From a virus (Duplodnaviria > Heunggongvirae > Uroviricota > Caudoviricetes), in IMG/VR virus record IMGVR_UViG_3300045988_158394: a stretch of DNA of 64,000 nucleotides. One strand, 5' to 3'. A program made the translations under genes and the position numbers. The notes below the pieces were generated by a model. It made no database searches. It was not told where the DNA came from and worked only from the letters and a program-made list of their open reading frames with translations. Shown one piece after another: positions 14,249 through 63,550 of this stretch (within the stretch, counting starts at the first letter, position 1; every line of letters starts with the position of its first letter).

Positions 14249-15094
14249 ATGCTGGCTAAAGTCACTTTCCTGAGCTGTATAACGATGAGCGATTTTACTT
14301 TTTCTGGCTATGAATTGGCCTGCTTTGTAACACACTCCGGTCTATCCCGTAGCGCCGGGCATATCCTGTCGCAATGTGCAAATCTCGCGGCAACAACCAG
14401 TGAATACTTCATTCACAAGCCTCACCGCCTGATCGCGGCAGAAACTGGTTATAGCCAATCAACCGTCGTTCGTGCATTCCGTGAAGCTGTAAACAAAGGA
14501 ATTCTGTCTGTAGAGATTGTTATCGGCGATCACCATGAACGTCGCGCTAACCTGTACCGGTTTACACCATCCTTTTTGGCCTTCGCACAACAAGCCAAAA
14601 ATGCGCTGATTGAAAGCAAATTAAAGATCTCTTCAGCGGCAACCAAGGTTAAAGCTGTTCTCGCTAAGACATTGGCTTTATTTAATTTTTTATCCACTCC
14701 CCCATGTCAAAATGATACCCCCTCCCCCTGTCAGGATGACGTGGCAATAAAGAATAAGAAGTCACAAGTTAAAAAAACAAAAAGATCAGTTTCCGGCGGT
14801 GCCGGAACGACCAGACTCAAAAAATTGACTTCATGGATCGCTGAGGCAAAAGCAAAGGCTGACAATCTGCGGTTATCCAAAAATCGCGCTCAAAAACATG
14901 AGTTCAAGCAGAAGGTAGAGGCGGCAGCGCGGAAATATGCTTACCTGAAGAACAAGCGTTCTCCTGATATTGGCGGGGTATCAAACTTCGATAATCTGCC
15001 GCATTGCATGACGGTAAACGAAGCTCTTAATGCGGTTTTAGCCAAAAATAAAGATAACGAACAATGGGGTATACCGGCAGGATTCAGAGGGTGA
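14249..15094 (+). CDS. repL: RepL lytic-replicon initiator
   Basis: 281-aa ORF directly after kilA; length and position match P1 repL. Confidence 0.65.
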   Translation: MLAKVTFLSCITMSDFTFSGYELACFVTHSGLSRSAGHILSQCANLAATTSEYFIHKPHRLIAAETGYSQSTVVRAFREAVNKGILSVEIVIGDHHERRANLYRFTPSFLAFAQQAKNALIESKLKISSAATKVKAVLAKTLALFNFLSTPPCQNDTPSPCQDDVAIKNKKSQVKKTKRSVSGGAGTTRLKKLTSWIAEAKAKADNLRLSKNRAQKHEFKQKVEAAARKYAYLKNKRSPDIGGVSNFDNLPHCMTVNEALNAVLAKNKDNEQWGIPAGFRG

Positions 15095-15144
15095 TAGATT
15101 GCTCTAATCTGGAGTCACCTGGCGTTTTCAGTTTGAGGTCGGAG

Positions 15145-15390
15145 ATGCAATCTGATTTTTTACAGTTAGCGATCGCTTTTGCAGGATATGTTTGTATTGG
15201 CTTCTGTGTATACATGATCAGCCGAAAAATGCTTGTCGATATCGACCGCAAAGAACGAGCAGAGGAGATCTTAGTATGGATTTTCTTTGGCGCGGTCTGG
15301 CCATTAGGGATCATGTTTGCTGCAACATTTCTTCTGATGTGGATATTCACCCTTCCAGGTGATTTCTATAGAAAAAAAGCCAGACATTGA
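15145..15390 (+). CDS. Small membrane protein (two predicted TM helices)
   Basis: Start chosen at ATG 15145 after GAGGTCGGAG; the track ORF 15064-15390 has a longer N-terminus. Confidence 0.4.
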   Translation: MQSDFLQLAIAFAGYVCIGFCVYMISRKMLVDIDRKERAEEILVWIFFGAVWPLGIMFAATFLLMWIFTLPGDFYRKKARH

Positions 15391-15464
15391 TACAATCGTT
15401 GCGGGTGCTTGAGGCTATCTGCTTCAGGCATTACCCGAAAAGCAGATAGAAGAAAGCCCCAGAT

Positions 15465-15530
15465 AACATTACGCGTCCTGCAAGACGCTTAACATTAATC
15501 TGAGGCCATATCTATGCTTAGCATACGTAG
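15465..15530 (-). ncRNA. Putative Sok-like antisense RNA (position inferred)
   Basis: Inferred from hok/sok organisation: antisense to the mok-like leader/start region. No promoter verified; boundaries are a guess. Confidence 0.25.
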
Positions 15531-15571
15531 ATTAGCCTCTTACCGACCAAAAGGTCAAGGAGAAGCAGGCT

Positions 15572-15727
15572 ATGAAGCAGCAAAAAGCGATGTTAATCGC
15601 TCTGATCGTCATCTGTTTAACCGTCATTGTGACGGCACTGGTAACGAGGAAAGACCTCTGCGAGGTACGAATCCGAACCGGCCAGACGGAGGTCACTGTC
15701 TTCACAGCCTACGAATCTGAAAGGTAA
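15572..15727 (+). CDS. hok: Hok/Gef-family type I toxin (51 aa)
   Basis: MKQQKAMLIALIVICLTVIVTALVTRKDLCEVRIRTGQTEVTVFTAYESER aligns with Hok; AGGAGA RBS; the overlapping 15514-15720 ORF is the mok-like frame; leader resembles the hok mRNA 5' region. Confidence 0.75.
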   Translation: MKQQKAMLIALIVICLTVIVTALVTRKDLCEVRIRTGQTEVTVFTAYESER

Positions 15728-15806
15728 GAGACCTGGCGGGGAGAGATCCTCGCCACTCTTCGTGTGTCAGGTATCCTCAATGCACCCTTTCCTCTCCAAA
15801 TAAAAA

Positions 15807-15828
15807 AGCTCCCGAAGGAGCTTTAAAA
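15807..15828. terminator. Hairpin terminator between convergent hok locus and structural operon
   Basis: AGCTCC-CGAA-GGAGCT stem with an A-run on the plus strand (T-run for the minus transcript). Confidence 0.55.
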
Positions 15829-15843
15829 TACAAGGGATGACTC

Positions 15844-56692: not shown

Positions 56693-56699
56693 GGTGTTT

Positions 56700-56921
56700 A
56701 TGCGATCCATTAACTTCCGTACCGCGCGCGGCAACCTTTCTGAAGTGCTCAACAATGTTGAAGCCGGGGAAGAGGTTGAAATCACCCGCAGAGGCCGTGA
56801 GCCAGCAGTAATTGTCAGCAAGGCTACTTTCGAAGCCTACAAAAAAGCGGCGCTGGATGCTGAATTTGCATCCCTGTTTGACACCCTGGACTCCACCAAC
56901 AAGGAACTGGTTAACCGATAA
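56700..56921 (+). CDS. phd: Antitoxin Phd
   Basis: 73 aa from ATG 56700 (GAGGTG RBS): [39 protein letters not shown]...; stop overlaps the doc start (TAATG). Confidence 0.85.
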
Positions 56922-57301
56922 TGAGGCATATATCACCGGAAGAACTTATTGCGCTTCATGATGCGAATATAAACCGCTACGGCGGCCTGCCGGGAATGTC
57001 AGATCCGGGTAGGGCAGAGGCCATTATCGGGAGAGTTCAGGCCAGAGTTGCCTACGAAGAGATCACCGACCTTTTCGAAGTCTCCGCCACCTACCTGGTG
57101 GCTACAGCGAGAGGGCATATATTCAATGATGCCAATAAGCGTACCGCGCTAAACAGTGCGCTGTTATTTCTACGCCGTAACGGGGTGCAGGTATTTGACT
57201 CCCCTGAACTGGTAGACCTTACCGTAGGGGCTGCGACCGGAGAGATATCTGTATCTACTGTCGCCGCCACGTTACGTAGATTGTATGGTTCTGCGGAGTA
57301 G
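56921..57301 (+). CDS. doc: Toxin Doc (Fic-fold kinase)
   Basis: 126 aa; Fic-type motif [19 protein letters not shown]. Confidence 0.85.
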
Positions 57302-59182: not shown

Positions 59183-60376
59183 GTGACCTGGGACGATCAC
59201 AAAAAGAATTTTGCTCGCCTGGCGCGAGATGGTGGTTACACCATCGCACAGTATGCCGCCGAGTTTAATCTTAACCCTAATACCGCACGTCGTTATCTCC
59301 GTGCCTTCAAAGAAGACACCAGGACTGCGGACAGCCGCAAGCCAAATAAGCCAGTCAGGAAGCCACTAAAAAGCATGATCATTGATCACTCTAATGATCA
59401 ACATGCAGGTGATCATATTGCGGCTGAAATAGCGGAAAAACAGAGAGTTAATGCCGTTGTCAGTGCCGCAGTCGAGAATGCGAAGCGCCAAAATAAGCGC
59501 ATAAATGATCGTTCAGATGATCATGACGTGATCACCCGCGCCCACCGGACCTTACGTGATCGCCTGGAACGCGACACCCTGGATGATGATGGTGAACGCT
59601 TTGAATTCGAAGCTGGCGATTACCTGATAGATAACGTTGAAGCGCGGAAGGCCGCGCGCGCTATGTTGCGTCGGTCCGGGGCCGATGTTCTGGAAACCAC
59701 TCTTCTTGAAAAGTCTCTTTCTCATCTCCTTATGCTGGAGAACGCCAGGGATACGTGTATTCGCCTGGTGCAGGAAATGCGCGATCAGCAAAAGGACGAT
59801 GATGAAGGTACTCCGCCTGAATACCGTATCGCGAGCATGCTAAACAGCTGTTCCGCGCAGATAAGCAGCCTGATCAACACCATTTACAGCATCCGGAATA
59901 ACTATCGAAAAGAAAGCCGGGAGGCGGAAAAGCACGCTTTGTCTATGGGGCAAGCTGGCATTGTTAAGCTGGCATACGAACGAAAGCGTGAAAATAACTG
60001 GTCAGTGCTGGAAGCAGCTGAATTCATCGAGGCGCATGGCGGGAAAGTGCCGCCCCTGATGCTGGAGCAAATCAAAGCCGATCTGCGTGCTCCGAAGACC
60101 AATACCGATGATGAGGAAAGGCAAACAGCCGTCGGTGGCCCTTCTCTTGAAGATCTGGACAAAGTTGCGCGAGAACGGGCCGCCAACCGCCGCGCCGATG
60201 CCGCATTGTGGATTGAGCAGCGTAGGGAAGAAATCGCCGATATCGTTGATACAGGCGGTTATGGAGATGTTGATACTGAAGGTGTATCAAACGACCCATG
60301 GCTGGAACAAGACCTGGACGAAGACGAGGAGGAAGACGAAGAAGTTACCCGCAAGCTATACGGGGATGATGATTAA
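59183..60376 (+). CDS. pacA: Terminase small subunit PacA (contains pac site)
   Basis: 397 aa; GTG start after AAGGAAG; the GATC-rich pac site lies inside the 5' part; acidic C-terminus. Confidence 0.8.
59374..59536. other. pac packaging site (Dam-methylatable hexanucleotide clusters)
   Basis: Four TGATCA/G-type elements at 59375-59416 and three at 59505-59534, about 162 bp in all, as described for P1 pac. Confidence 0.8.
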
Positions 60377-61860
60377 TGGCCAGAAGTTGCGTAACGGATC
60401 CACGTTGGCGCGAGCTGGTGGCGCTATATCGTTATGACTGGATTGCTGCCGCTGATGTTTTGTTCGGCAAAACACCTACCTGGCAGCAGGATCTGATTAT
60501 TGAGTCTGTGCAGGAACAGGGTAGCAAGACATCTGTTTCGTCTGGTCACGGTACCGGGAAATCAGACATGACTTCTATCATGATCATGTTGTTCATAATC
60601 ATGTATCCCGGTGCCCGCGCCATTATCGTTGCGAACAAAATTCAGCAGGTAATGACCGGTATATTCAAGTACATCAAGATAAACTGGGCTACTGCCACCA
60701 GCCGTTTCCCATGGCTTGCTGATTATTTTGTTCTGACAGAAACCGCTTTCTATGAGGTTACTGGTAAAGGTGTATGGACTGTAGTACCGAAGGGCTTTCG
60801 TCTGGGAAGTGAAGAAGCTCTCGCCGGTGAACACGCAGATCATCTTCTGTATATTATCGATGAAGCCTCCGGTGTCAGTGATAGAGCTTTCGGTATCATC
60901 ACCGGTGCTCTTACCGGACAGGATAACCGCATCTTATTGCTGTCACAGCCTACACGCCCAAGCGGCTATTTCTACGATACTCACCATAAACTGGCCAAGC
61001 GTCCTGGTAACCCTGATGGCGTTTATACGGCGATCACGCTTAACAGTGAGGAATCACCGCTGGTAACGCCAGCATTTATCAAAATGAAGCTGGCGGAGTA
61101 CGGCGGTCGCGATAACCCTATGTACATGATTAAGGTACGCGGCCTATTCCCTAAATCACAGGATGGCTTCCTTCTTGGACGTGATGAGGTTGAACGTGCA
61201 ACGCGGCGGAAAGTCAAGATTGCAAAAGGATGGGGCTGGCTTGCATGTGTGGACGTTGCTGGTGGTACGGGACGGGATAAGTCCGTTATCAATATCATGA
61301 TGGTGTCCGGCCAGAGAAATAAACGCCGTGTAATCAACTATCGAATGCTGGAATACACAGACGTTACAGAAACGCAGCTTGCCGCCAAAATTTTCGCAGA
61401 ATGTAATCCTGAGCGATTCCCAAATATTACCATAGCGATAGACGGCGATGGCCTGGGTAAAGCAACGGCGGATCTGATGTACGAGTATTATGGTATTACC
61501 GTACAGCGTATACGCTGGGGTAAAAAGATGCATAGCCGTGAAGATAAGAGCCTGTACTTTGATAAACGTGCTTATGCCAACGTTCAAGCCGCAGAGGCCG
61601 TAAAATCTGGTCGTATGAGACTGGATAAGGGTAATGAAACTATTGAGGAAGCGTCGAAAATCCCTGTAGGGATTAACTCCGCAGGTCAATGGAAGGTGAT
61701 GAGTAAGGAGGATATGAAGAAAAAACTCAACCTGCACTCACCAGACCATTGGGATACATATTGTTTCGCTATGCTGGCGGATTATGTTCCCCAGGACGAA
61801 GTGCTTAGCGTCGAAGACGAAGCGCAGGTTGATGAAGCTCTGGCATGGCTTAATGAATGA
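60376..61860 (+). CDS. pacB: Terminase large subunit PacB
   Basis: 494 aa; Walker-A-like SSGHGTGKS, Walker-B-like [10 protein letters not shown]; start overlaps the pacA stop. Confidence 0.8.
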
Positions 61861-61880: not shown

Positions 61881-62011
61881 TGTTTTTTAACTACCGATGT
61901 TACATTGAACCTGACCTCTTGCGCCTTGAGGCATTTTCGGTTTATGCTTATCAGGCACCTCAGTAAAACGGGTGCCGGGATTGAGACCCCGGATAATGCA
62001 AAAGGCGACAC

Positions 62012-62034
62012 AGACGCCAAAAGCGTCTTTTTTT
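62012..62034 (+). terminator. Terminator/attenuator hairpin in the leader of the second immI-like module
   Basis: AGACGC-CAAAA-GCGTCT followed by TTTTTTT. Confidence 0.55.
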
Positions 62035-62083
62035 GTGTCATGCCATCGCACAGCCATACGTAGCGTTTAGCTCAGAGATCAAT

Positions 62084-62159
62084 GGTAGTGCTGGCTGGGC
62101 TGCCGAAAGGCAGGCCGGTTCCCTTTTGCGCCGGTAGTCTCAACCCAGTCAGTGCTACC
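62084..62159 (+). ncRNA. c4-like antisense RNA, second diverged copy
   Basis: GGTAGTGCTGG...CCAGTCAGTGCTACC closing stem with internal hairpins, same position relative to icd' as the first c4; GTCTCAA is complementary to TTGAGAC downstream. Confidence 0.4.
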
Positions 62160-62219
62160 GCCATTGAGATTGAGACCTCACGCGGTAGCTCCTTAAATTA
62201 GCAAAAGGAGGCTGCCATT

Positions 62220-62441
62220 GTGGCTACTATCCCTACCCCTGCTCATCCTGAATTTATCTGGCGCTTTTACTCCTGCCAAAAACGTCACTATCACTTCGTT
62301 ATTGCACCGACAGAAGATGAGGCACGTTCTCAGCTTCCGGATGCTCCCTGTATTTTCTCTGCCCGCTTTTCTACCGATTCGCGCAATTCTCTCAGTTACT
62401 GGTGCCTCCCTGTTAACGCTTCTGCTCAGGAGGGACTATGA
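62220..62441 (+). CDS. Icd paralogue (73 aa)
   Basis: MATIPTPAHPEFIWRFYSCQKRHYHFVIAPTEDEARSQLPDAPCIF... clearly paralogous to Icd at 11994-12215; GTG start after AAGGAGG; stop overlaps the next start. Confidence 0.7.
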   Translation: MATIPTPAHPEFIWRFYSCQKRHYHFVIAPTEDEARSQLPDAPCIFSARFSTDSRNSLSYWCLPVNASAQEGL

Positions 62442-63550
62442 GAACGTCATTAGTCACCCGTGAAGAGATGATCGAGGCAATTGAACAGCACACTGCCTGT
62501 ATCAGTACCAGGGATATACCGGGCGTTATTGCCAACTACTTCATGATCACCAAACAACTTTACCGGAGAAAGGACAAACACGCGGTTCACCGCATTCTGC
62601 TAACCGATATCCGTGAATACCTGCTCGAACAGGGTCATCTGAATTACGCAACCGTCGCAGCCGAAGCACGCAAGGAGGCACACAGAATGAAAGCAACTAA
62701 CGTTAAATCAGAAAAAATTTATGCACCTTCAGTTCAGGAATCGGAACTGGTGGTTGTTCAGAATCAGCCGGATGAAATTCCCGTTCTGGAATGGCAGGGA
62801 GTACGTGTCGTGACAACCGAAACTCTTGCTAGAGGGTATGGGGTCGATGAAGCCAATATTCGCAACAATTTGTCTCGCAACCTTGACCGCTTTGAAGCAG
62901 GTAAGCATTACTTTCTTCTAACTGCTTTAAAATTAAGAGAATTTAAGAACAGAGTAACCGGAAGTTACTCTGTTGGTAAGAACGCCAGAAGCCTTACACT
63001 CTGGACAGAGCGCGGCGCTGCACGCATGTCTAAGATCGTGGACACAAATGAAGCATGGGCATTCTTTGAAAAACTGGAAGACAGCTACTTCCGGCAAAAA
63101 GAACAGCAACCGGTTGCAATCCCCCAGACGCTTCCAGAAGCTCTGCGCCTGGCTGCCGAACTGGCTGAACAAAAGCAGCTTCTGGAACAGAAAGCCCACC
63201 AGCTAAATCAGCAGCTGGTGGCCGCCGCTCCTAAAGTCGATTTTGCCGACCGGGTATCAGTAGCTAAAGGGATCCTGATTGGGAATTTTGCAAAGGTTGT
63301 TGGACTTAAGCAAAACGCGCTGTTTGCCTGGTTACGGGAGAACGGCATCCTGATAGCGTCCGGTGGACGTAAAAATGTGCCGTTCCAGCAGTACATCAAT
63401 GCGGGGTATTTCACGGTGAAAGAAGTGGTGCTGGATGATGAAGATGGCTACCAGATACGGTTGACGCCTCAATTAACGGGTAAAGGCCAGCAGTGGTTGA
63501 CGCGTAAACTGCTCGATGCTGGCTTGTTAAAACCGGTGGCGGCTGAATAA
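62438..63550 (+). CDS. Antirepressor paralogue with Bro-N-like middle domain and KilAC-like C-terminus (internal start at 62687)
   Basis: 370 aa; N-terminal 80 aa paralogous to Ant1; conserved AAGGAGG before internal ATG 62687; central Bro-N-like segment; C-terminus near-identical to Ant1. Confidence 0.7.
   Translation: MRTSLVTREEMIEAIEQHTACISTRDIPGVIANYFMITKQLYRRKDKHAVHRILLTDIREYLLEQGHLNYATVAAEARKEAHRMKATNVKSEKIYAPSVQESELVVVQNQPDEIPVLEWQGVRVVTTETLARGYGVDEANIRNNLSRNLDRFEAGKHYFLLTALKLREFKNRVTGSYSVGKNARSLTLWTERGAARMSKIVDTNEAWAFFEKLEDSYFRQKEQQPVAIPQTLPEALRLAAELAEQKQLLEQKAHQLNQQLVAAAPKVDFADRVSVAKGILIGNFAKVVGLKQNALFAWLRENGILIASGGRKNVPFQQYINAGYFTVKEVVLDDEDGYQIRLTPQLTGKGQQWLTRKLLDAGLLKPVAAE

Follow-up and report, generated by a model that had tools for sequence, protein, structure and literature searches.

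The stretch of DNA analysed here (the window) is IMG/VR virus record IMGVR_UViG_3300045988_158394, 64,000 nucleotides of a member of the Caudoviricetes, one strand of which is numbered 5′ to 3′. Judged by its sequence, the element is P1-like but is not P1 itself. Between repL and the structural operon bplB/pmgG/21/22 lies a type I toxin-antitoxin locus of the hok/sok kind, at the position given by an earlier, sequence-only reading of the same DNA (the original prediction). The sequence contains every cis element of the hok family, together with their conserved folding. The favoured reading, with a probability of roughly 0.8, is that of an intact hok/mok/sok module of the prophage and chromosomal HokD-HokW lineage, which a P1-like phage-plasmid carries as cargo between repL and bplB, a variable region. 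The interval first proposed for the locus, 15400-15830, is slightly narrow, as the hok promoter starts at 15369 and the inserted cassette spans 15109-15801. The features of the module are as follows.

15369-15396, + strand: candidate hok promoter from a promoter scan (TAGAAA, 16 nt, TACAAT, with TG upstream of the -10, an extended -10)
15403-15825, + strand: predicted full-length hok mRNA, comprising tac, leader, mok/hok, 3′ untranslated region and fbi, then the P1-derived hairpin
15403-15414, + strand: tac element GGGUGCUUGAGG, at the mRNA 5′ end
15453-15460, + strand: ucb or anti-Shine-Dalgarno (anti-SD) element AAAGCCCC, paired in the closed form with the ribosome site of mok
15514-15720, + strand: mok reading frame of 68 aa, with ribosome site GAGG at 15502-15505, overlapping hok in another frame
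15522 to 15452, - strand: predicted Sok antisense RNA of 71 nt, placed by alignment of the annotated SokW feature of 933W
15529-15558, - strand: candidate Sok promoter (-35 TTGACC at 15558 to 15553, 18-nt spacer, -10 TAATCT at 15534 to 15529)
15572-15727, + strand: hok toxin gene, 51 aa, protein MKQQKAMLIALIVICLTVIVTALVTRKDLCEVRIRTGQTEVTVFTAYESER
15705-15719, + strand: small hairpin with UACG in its loop, containing the Tyr47 codon UAC of hok at 15710-15712
15735-15754, + strand: G+C-rich hairpin of the 3′ untranslated region, seen in the folds and intact in the window
15776-15788, + strand: fbi element CCUCAAUGCACCC, complementary to tac

The 51-residue peptide has the size of the small membrane toxins of the Hok/Gef family (about 50 aa) and was correctly assigned to them by the original prediction: it matches Pfam PF01848 (HOK_GEF) with E=2.4e-22 and 78.7 bits against a cut-off of 22, as well as phrog_251 (‘MokW-like host killing’, E=4.9e-32). 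It shares 47 of 51 residues with HokW and 48 of 51 with a chromosomal E. coli HokD-type protein. The overlapping mok-like frame that had also been noticed is borne out as well. It begins upstream of hok with a ribosome site of its own, matches phrog_37205 (E=8e-21) and sits at the place homologous to the annotated mok of the Rac locus. Searches of Mok, the neighbouring small protein orf81, RepL and BplB against Pfam gave no match, nor did searches of Mok and orf81 against NCBIfam. In 933W (L003, 1616-1828), the loss of 1 nt upstream of the ribosome site of hok brings mokW and hokW into the same frame; MokW of 933W is consequently an N-terminally extended HokW, whereas mok of the window and of Rac is in a different frame from hok. 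Matches to the Hok coding sequence in Acinetobacter idrijaensis (a 275-bp contig) and Xanthomonas pisi (a 431-bp contig) were set aside. Both are 100% identical to the window over the part covered (residues 5-51 and 1-41, respectively), and because they lie on very short contigs of unrelated genera they most likely reflect assembly contamination and not transfer.

The leader upstream of hok, which had been described as resembling the 5′ region of hok mRNA, was compared with Rfam as the original prediction had proposed. On the + strand, 15403-15577 gives a full-length match (model positions 1-157) to family RF01794 (‘sok’), scoring 114.9 bits where the gathering score is 59 (E=2e-25). Taken together, the peptide, the mok frame and the leader cannot be put down to chance. 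Despite its name, the Rfam model represents the hok mRNA strand and stops at the hok AUG, and what the hit marks is therefore the hok leader with the Sok target, not the Sok transcript; as the leader contains the Sok target, it therefore contains the Sok gene on the other strand. The predicted start of hok transcription, at about 15403, coincides with the first position of the model match. The -10 of the candidate promoter (TACAAT) corresponds in the alignment to TAGAAT at Rac and 933W, while its -35 region is supplied by the last codons of orf81, and for this reason the -35 regions of the window and Rac differ. A further promoter-like site on the + strand within the leader (15489-15518) was judged to be due to chance, as the region holds two sites against 1.0±0.9 expected.

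Folding of the transcript region (424 nt) gives -165.7 kcal/mol, with z=-8.46 relative to shuffled sequences, and pairs its 5′ end to its 3′ end. This long-range pairing joins tac to fbi in a duplex with one bulge and an energy of -21.0 kcal/mol, a value matched by 6 of 2000 (0.3%) random 110-nt stretches of the window. In addition to the covariance-model match, the folds sequester the mok ribosome site, in that its GAGG pairs with GCCCC of the anti-SD element within a hairpin at 15456-15505. When the 3′ end is removed, the first ~120 nt of the leader refold and the 5′ end becomes a local hairpin. A refolding of the leader into an open form is what the model of plasmid R1 expects (the definitions of tac, fbi, ucb and dcb follow PMC9841398).

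A scan with one genome per species yielded 47 related loci, from which 31 distinct full-length mRNA regions were aligned and folded. Their consensus keeps the end-to-end helix. Its fourth pair, between tac position 4 and its fbi partner, is U-A in 18 loci and C-G in 11, and GAGG/CCUC of tac/fbi becomes GAGA/UCUC or GAAG/CUUC in other loci. The hairpin that forms the Sok target covaries at five pairs (columns 56-107). Within the anti-SD element, AAAGCCC is unchanged in all 31 loci, and the C that ends the element in 30. A helix CUCUUAC/GUAAGAG, in which the stretch ahead of the hok ribosome site pairs with that of the hok stop codon, is essentially invariant, with a single G-U wobble across the alignment, and the G+C-rich 3′ hairpin is conserved. 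The window locus fits every one of these consensus features.

On the opposite strand, a stretch slightly longer than the predicted Sok RNA (15445-15524, 80 nt) folds at -33.2 kcal/mol (z=-5.05). In this fold the 5′ tail, complementary to the mok AUG and ribosome site, stays free, and behind it come a long terminator hairpin and a GGGGCUUUCU tail. Among eight relatives, the 5′ tail and mok start (15506-15522) are among the least conserved parts of the locus, with a mean identity of 0.73 against 0.92 for the Sok hairpin, as expected for a recognition region. The candidate Sok promoter lies in a block, CTCCTTG(A)CC…GTAAGAGGCTAAxCT, that is conserved in 17 aligned loci ranging from Escherichia to Photorhabdus. 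In the homologous sokW promoter, mutation abolishes antitoxin activity (PMC8621323).

By homology to hok/sok of R1 and hokW-sokW of phage Sp5, the module would work as follows. The weak promoter at 15369-15396 would produce a stable hok mRNA from about 15403, which tac-fbi pairing and the anti-SD element over the mok ribosome site would keep from being either translated or bound by Sok. Slow trimming of the 3′ end would remove fbi and let the leader refold. Short-lived Sok from the convergent promoter at 15529-15558 would then pair with the mok start region of the refolded mRNA, blocking translation of mok and the coupled translation of hok and marking the duplex for RNase III. Once the supply of Sok ends, through plasmid loss or a shut-off of transcription, Hok would be made, enter the inner membrane and kill the cell.

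The small hairpin near the end of the hok gene (15705-15719) is likewise conserved among the 31 loci. Its stem covaries (columns 309/323, CG in 16 and UA in 14; columns 310/322, GC in 20 and AU in 8), and its loop UACGAA is invariant. A-to-I editing by TadA, changing Tyr to Cys, has been reported for hokB, C, D and E (introduction of bioRxiv 10.1101/2025.08.07.668861). The hairpin resembles the type of site reported as edited, although editing here is hypothetical. If it occurs, editing of Tyr47 would give Hok a second Cys near its C-terminus.

The module is embedded in a larger replacement relative to P1, whose parts and neighbours, including a second toxin-antitoxin pair elsewhere in the window, are these.

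15098-15108, + strand: core ATTGCTCTAAT of a C1 operator (Orlf/Op55), from the P1 annotation and alignment
15109-15801: cassette of 693 bp, replacing 1826 bp of P1 with rlfA, rlfB and pmgF
15145-15390, + strand: orf81, 81 aa with two hydrophobic stretches by hydropathy, matching phrog_3772 over its full length (E=6e-54)
15802-15826: P1-derived hairpin AAAGCTCC-CGAA-GGAGCTTT at the right junction, terminating the bplB operon on the - strand
56694-57301, + strand: phd-doc type II toxin-antitoxin pair (phd 56694-56921, doc 56921-57301)

Breakpoints in blastn and the alignment of both junctions show that homology to P1 (NC_005856) ends at 15108 and restarts at 15802. The canonical order rlfA-rlfB-pmgF between repL and bplB is not found here; these P1 genes are absent, and the cassette in their place consists of a small membrane-protein gene (orf81) and hok/sok. 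As P1 homology ends at 15108, the left junction falls immediately after the core of the C1 operator. Including this 11-nt core, ATTGCTCTAAT, the window holds seven perfect cores, compared with 0.03 expected. At the junction, the core of Op55/Orlf is kept and its 3′ six bases are replaced; P1's own Op55 likewise departs from the operator consensus in those six bases. At the right junction, the P1-derived hairpin occupies the place of the terminator belonging to the Rac locus, and a terminator scan calls it on the - strand only.

The left 280 bp of the cassette, directly after repL, encode orf81. A longer frame at 15064-15390 (108 aa) was rejected, since the PHROG profile covers only its residues 28-108 and a GAGG lies 6 nt upstream of 15145. 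The scan gave no promoter-like site for orf81, which may thus be co-transcribed with kilA-repL. In tblastn searches, orf81 was found in P1-like phages only, among them a 44%-identical homologue in SJ46, a phage without hok. The right part of the cassette, 15391-15787, is 87-91% identical to Rac-type and Stx lambdoid prophage loci. An origin of the cassette as a single piece from a lambdoid prophage was rejected, as homology to Rac and 933W is limited to 15391-15787 and orf81 is confined to P1-like elements, including SJ46.

The original prediction was also right that hok/sok does not belong to canonical P1, as P1 and P7 both carry rlfA-rlfB-pmgF at this place. Among natural relatives this arrangement is the rarer one. 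PLSDB contains 516 plasmids with repL, of which about 442 have the module. At least 80% of the hok/sok module is present in 442 PLSDB plasmids and the whole cassette (at least 80% coverage) in at least 255, at least 12 of them with 100% identity; many of the copies are 100% identical and annotated ‘hokD’ by PGAP. The P1 arrangement is found in 99-101. Across hundreds of P1-like plasmids, the cassette or module is held at 95% identity or more. The whole cassette further occurs in seven phage records (phi456, MH422554, pSvP1, MH445381, Ro157c2YLVW under two accessions, and 673R5) and in 230 of the complete E. coli genomes, which number 5,426. One or more related modules occur in 4,739 of them (87%), mostly chromosomal, 80-95% identical and in one to nine copies per genome.

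Many relatives carry damaged versions of the site, while the cassette of the window is unbroken. Module position 359 is where about one third of the plasmid hits break off. In one such locus (L008, 2860-4196), a 1337-bp insert with IS186-type ends CATAAGCGCTAACTTAAGGGT duplicates 15739-15749 and splits hok from fbi, and a chromosomal hok locus carries the same 1337-bp insertion. IS186B was named in pSvP1 by Venturini 2019 (PMC6906374). The G+C-rich hairpin at 15735-15754 is a recurrent target of IS186 (at 15739-15749), and the copy in the window is uninterrupted. In RCS47, SJ46 and NZ_CP083486.1, only 15391-15540 is kept as a relic containing the hok promoter, tac, the coding part of Sok and the Sok -10, with the -35 gone; a different minus-strand open reading frame of about 200 aa extends up to the same right junction at 15802. 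These relics imply that the hok/sok state preceded the variants that carry them.

From this distribution, natural P1-like phage-plasmids most often have hok/sok at the repL-bplB site, where the module appears to be old and laboratory P1 represents a minority state. The locus is already known in the sense that the same module is present and annotated in hundreds of these elements, so its absence from laboratory P1 does not make it unusual. As a discovery it matters little: it is a textbook type of module with identical copies annotated in hundreds of public records. Its significance lies in showing that laboratory P1 and P7 are unrepresentative at this site, whereas most natural P1-like phage-plasmids have hok/sok in an intact, IS186-interrupted or relic form. 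It follows that phd-doc is often not the only such system in these antibiotic-resistance-carrying phage-plasmids: an RNA-based module for stability or lysis accompanies it, and this may bear on their persistence.

The presence of two unrelated addiction systems on the element, as first proposed, holds at the level of the genes. In the adjacent pair phd-doc, phd matches Pfam PhdYeFM_antitox (E=2.9e-13) and doc matches Fic/DOC (E=1.9e-9). That hok/sok would kill cells after plasmid loss is the inferred part of the proposal. The most likely benefit of the module would be to stabilise a one-copy plasmid prophage in parallel to phd-doc, and post-segregational killing alongside phd-doc is likely. 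A second immI-like module (61955-63550) lies between pacB (60376-61860) and the place of c1 in P1. It consists of an Rfam isrK match (61955-62033), a second C4 antisense RNA (62078-62165), a 73-aa open reading frame (62220-62441) and an antirepressor of 370 aa (62438-63550) in which ORF6N and KilAC domains are present. This insert is also found in JL22 (99.2%), RCS47 and 673R5 and is absent from P1, P7 and MH422554.

Several observations weigh against an intact and active addiction module. NCBIfam Hok models hit the peptide below their curated cut-offs (49.5 against 73). The terminator present in the Rac copy has been replaced by the P1 hairpin. As no more than three U follow this hairpin on the + strand, the position of the hok mRNA 3′ end is uncertain. 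A generic sigma-70 scan gave no minus-strand promoter in the region, because the Sok -10 (TAATCT) matches the consensus at only three of six positions; with this -10 and an 18-nt spacer, the Sok promoter rests on homology, and the candidate was therefore placed by its correspondence to sokW and its conservation. A literature search found no experiment on the locus in a P1-like element, nor a description of it there as hok/sok. According to the introduction of bioRxiv 10.1101/2025.08.07.668861, chromosomal hokA, hokB and hokC did not bring about post-segregational killing, although these genes are outside the HokD/HokW lineage of the window. Finally, the related chromosomal modules in 87% of complete E. 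coli genomes provide Sok RNAs that might cross-neutralise the toxin of the window. The Rac-type Sok differs from that of the window by two bases in the 17-nt 5′ tail, making cross-neutralisation between resident prophages and the plasmid module conceivable; if true, such cross-talk would decide the hosts in which plasmid addiction works.

Other roles may exist beside or instead of addiction. Of all the roles considered, stabilisation of the plasmid prophage ranks first, followed by help in lysis, phage exclusion and the state of a largely silent passenger, and these are not mutually exclusive. The module may also help lysis after induction, and a mainly lytic function is the best of the alternatives, though distinctly less probable than the favoured reading. 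Sok would disappear on induction and Hok would damage the membrane early, giving faster lysis and more phage release, as in hokW-sokW of Sp5. In that closest tested relative, sokW RNA vanishes upon prophage induction, and deletion of hokW-sokW delays growth arrest by ~40 min and halves phage release (Takada 2021, PMC8621323). The arrangement of the window speaks for such a function: the module lies directly downstream of C1-repressed kilA-repL-orf81 and is co-oriented with it, the core of the C1 operator is kept just upstream, and the scans found only a weak terminator-like site (15347-15362) between repL and hok and none resembling a promoter for orf81. The hok gene is also co-oriented with its upstream genes in the Rac-type and 933W loci, but such agreement across three contexts would arise by chance with a probability of about 1 in 8. 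In addition, P1 and P7 show normal lysis although they lack the module, and a lytic function is compatible with addiction in any case.

Speculatively, the lytic trigger could be C1-repressed kilA-repL transcription that reads through orf81 and collides with the convergent Sok promoter. It is doubtful, yet conceivable, that the module is wired in this manner to the lysis-lysogeny switch, rather than to plasmid-loss killing or besides it, with read-through silencing the Sok promoter and freeing Hok to damage the membrane early and so aid lysis. Such wiring, if true, would explain mechanistically the loss of sokW RNA on induction of Sp5.

It is similarly improbable that the module is a barely active or inactive passenger, silent like the chromosomal hok loci of E. 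coli K-12 and kept only through recent inheritance with the backbone. The loss of its terminator would fit this, as would the roughly one third of related plasmids with IS186 between hok and fbi and the others without the hok coding part, from which it follows that the site tolerates inactivation. Conservation, moreover, says little about selection, given that the copies are 99-100% identical. Against passenger status, each known cis element is intact in the copy of the window, the near-identical HokW and sokW are active (PMC8621323), and 42 of 45 tested Hok homologues, a family enriched in prophages, are toxic (2026 preprint, bioRxiv 10.1101/2025.08.07.668861). Least probable is abortive-infection defence, in which a lytic phage would stop host transcription, Sok would decay and Hok would kill the cell before the invader finishes: a PADLOC scan of Hok, Mok and orf81 gave no match, hok is not enriched beside defence systems (bioRxiv 10.1101/2025.08.07.668861), and the reported effect on T4 is small and comes from a high-copy construct, whereas a P1-like prophage has about one copy.

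An intact hok/mok/sok module in a P1-like phage-plasmid thus remains the favoured reading, and its nearest counterparts are other elements of the same kind. In NZ_CP022733.1, NC_017653.1, phi456 (OR339795), MH422554 and pSvP1 (MH445380), the 693-bp cassette is 99-100% identical and occupies the same repL-bplB place. These records annotate the toxin frame only (‘hokD, type I toxin-antitoxin system toxin’, sometimes ‘MokW’) and leave sok, mok and the RNA elements unannotated; otherwise nothing of substance is different. The substitution in pSvP1 has been described as ‘2 orfs including antibacterial toxin’ (Venturini 2019, PMC6906374), and rlfA-rlfB-pmgF is known as variable region 5 of P1-like phage-plasmids (PMC9603915). 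P1 and P7 share both flanks at 95-99% identity: the left one comprises kilA, repL and the operator core, the right one the bplB terminator together with bplB, pmgG and gene 21. Unlike the window, P1 has 1826 bp with rlfA (DUF3800), rlfB and pmgF between them and no hok.

The hok/sok (parB) locus of R1 shares its architecture and regulatory logic with the window locus: tac/fbi, ucb, dcb and mok, plus a Sok of ~65-70 nt encoded in cis as an antisense RNA (elements as defined in PMC9841398), and the Rfam family that matches the leader so strongly is based on this type. Its toxin is only ~42-45% identical to Hok of the window, in line with the 44% identity between HokW and R1 Hok (PMC8621323). The R1 type is found on conjugative plasmids, whereas the lineage of the window occurs in prophages, chromosomes and P1-like plasmids. 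Far closer is the Rac-type prophage hok, or chromosomal HokD (RelF), with 91% nucleotide identity over 397 nt, an identical Sok promoter (TTGACC, 18 nt, TAATCT), the same mok frame and a toxin identical at 47-48 of 51 residues. The Rac copy differs in having its own terminator 8 nt after fbi, where the window has that of P1 bplB.

The closest tested relative is hokW-sokW of the Stx2 phage Sp5 (and 933W), which is a working type I toxin-antitoxin system. It shares 87.6% nucleotide identity with the window across 388 nt that begin at the 5′ end of the mRNA and run to fbi, and homology to both 933W and Rac stops just after fbi. The two systems have the same tac and fbi, toxins identical at all but four of 51 residues, and a homologous Sok hairpin and promoter block. 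They differ in the 5′ tail of Sok, which is the recognition region, in the frame of mokW, which in 933W is that of hokW, and in their context, which is a lambdoid prophage for hokW-sokW and a plasmid prophage for the window. HokW is toxic, and sokW expressed from its own promoter neutralises it (Takada 2021, PMC8621323).

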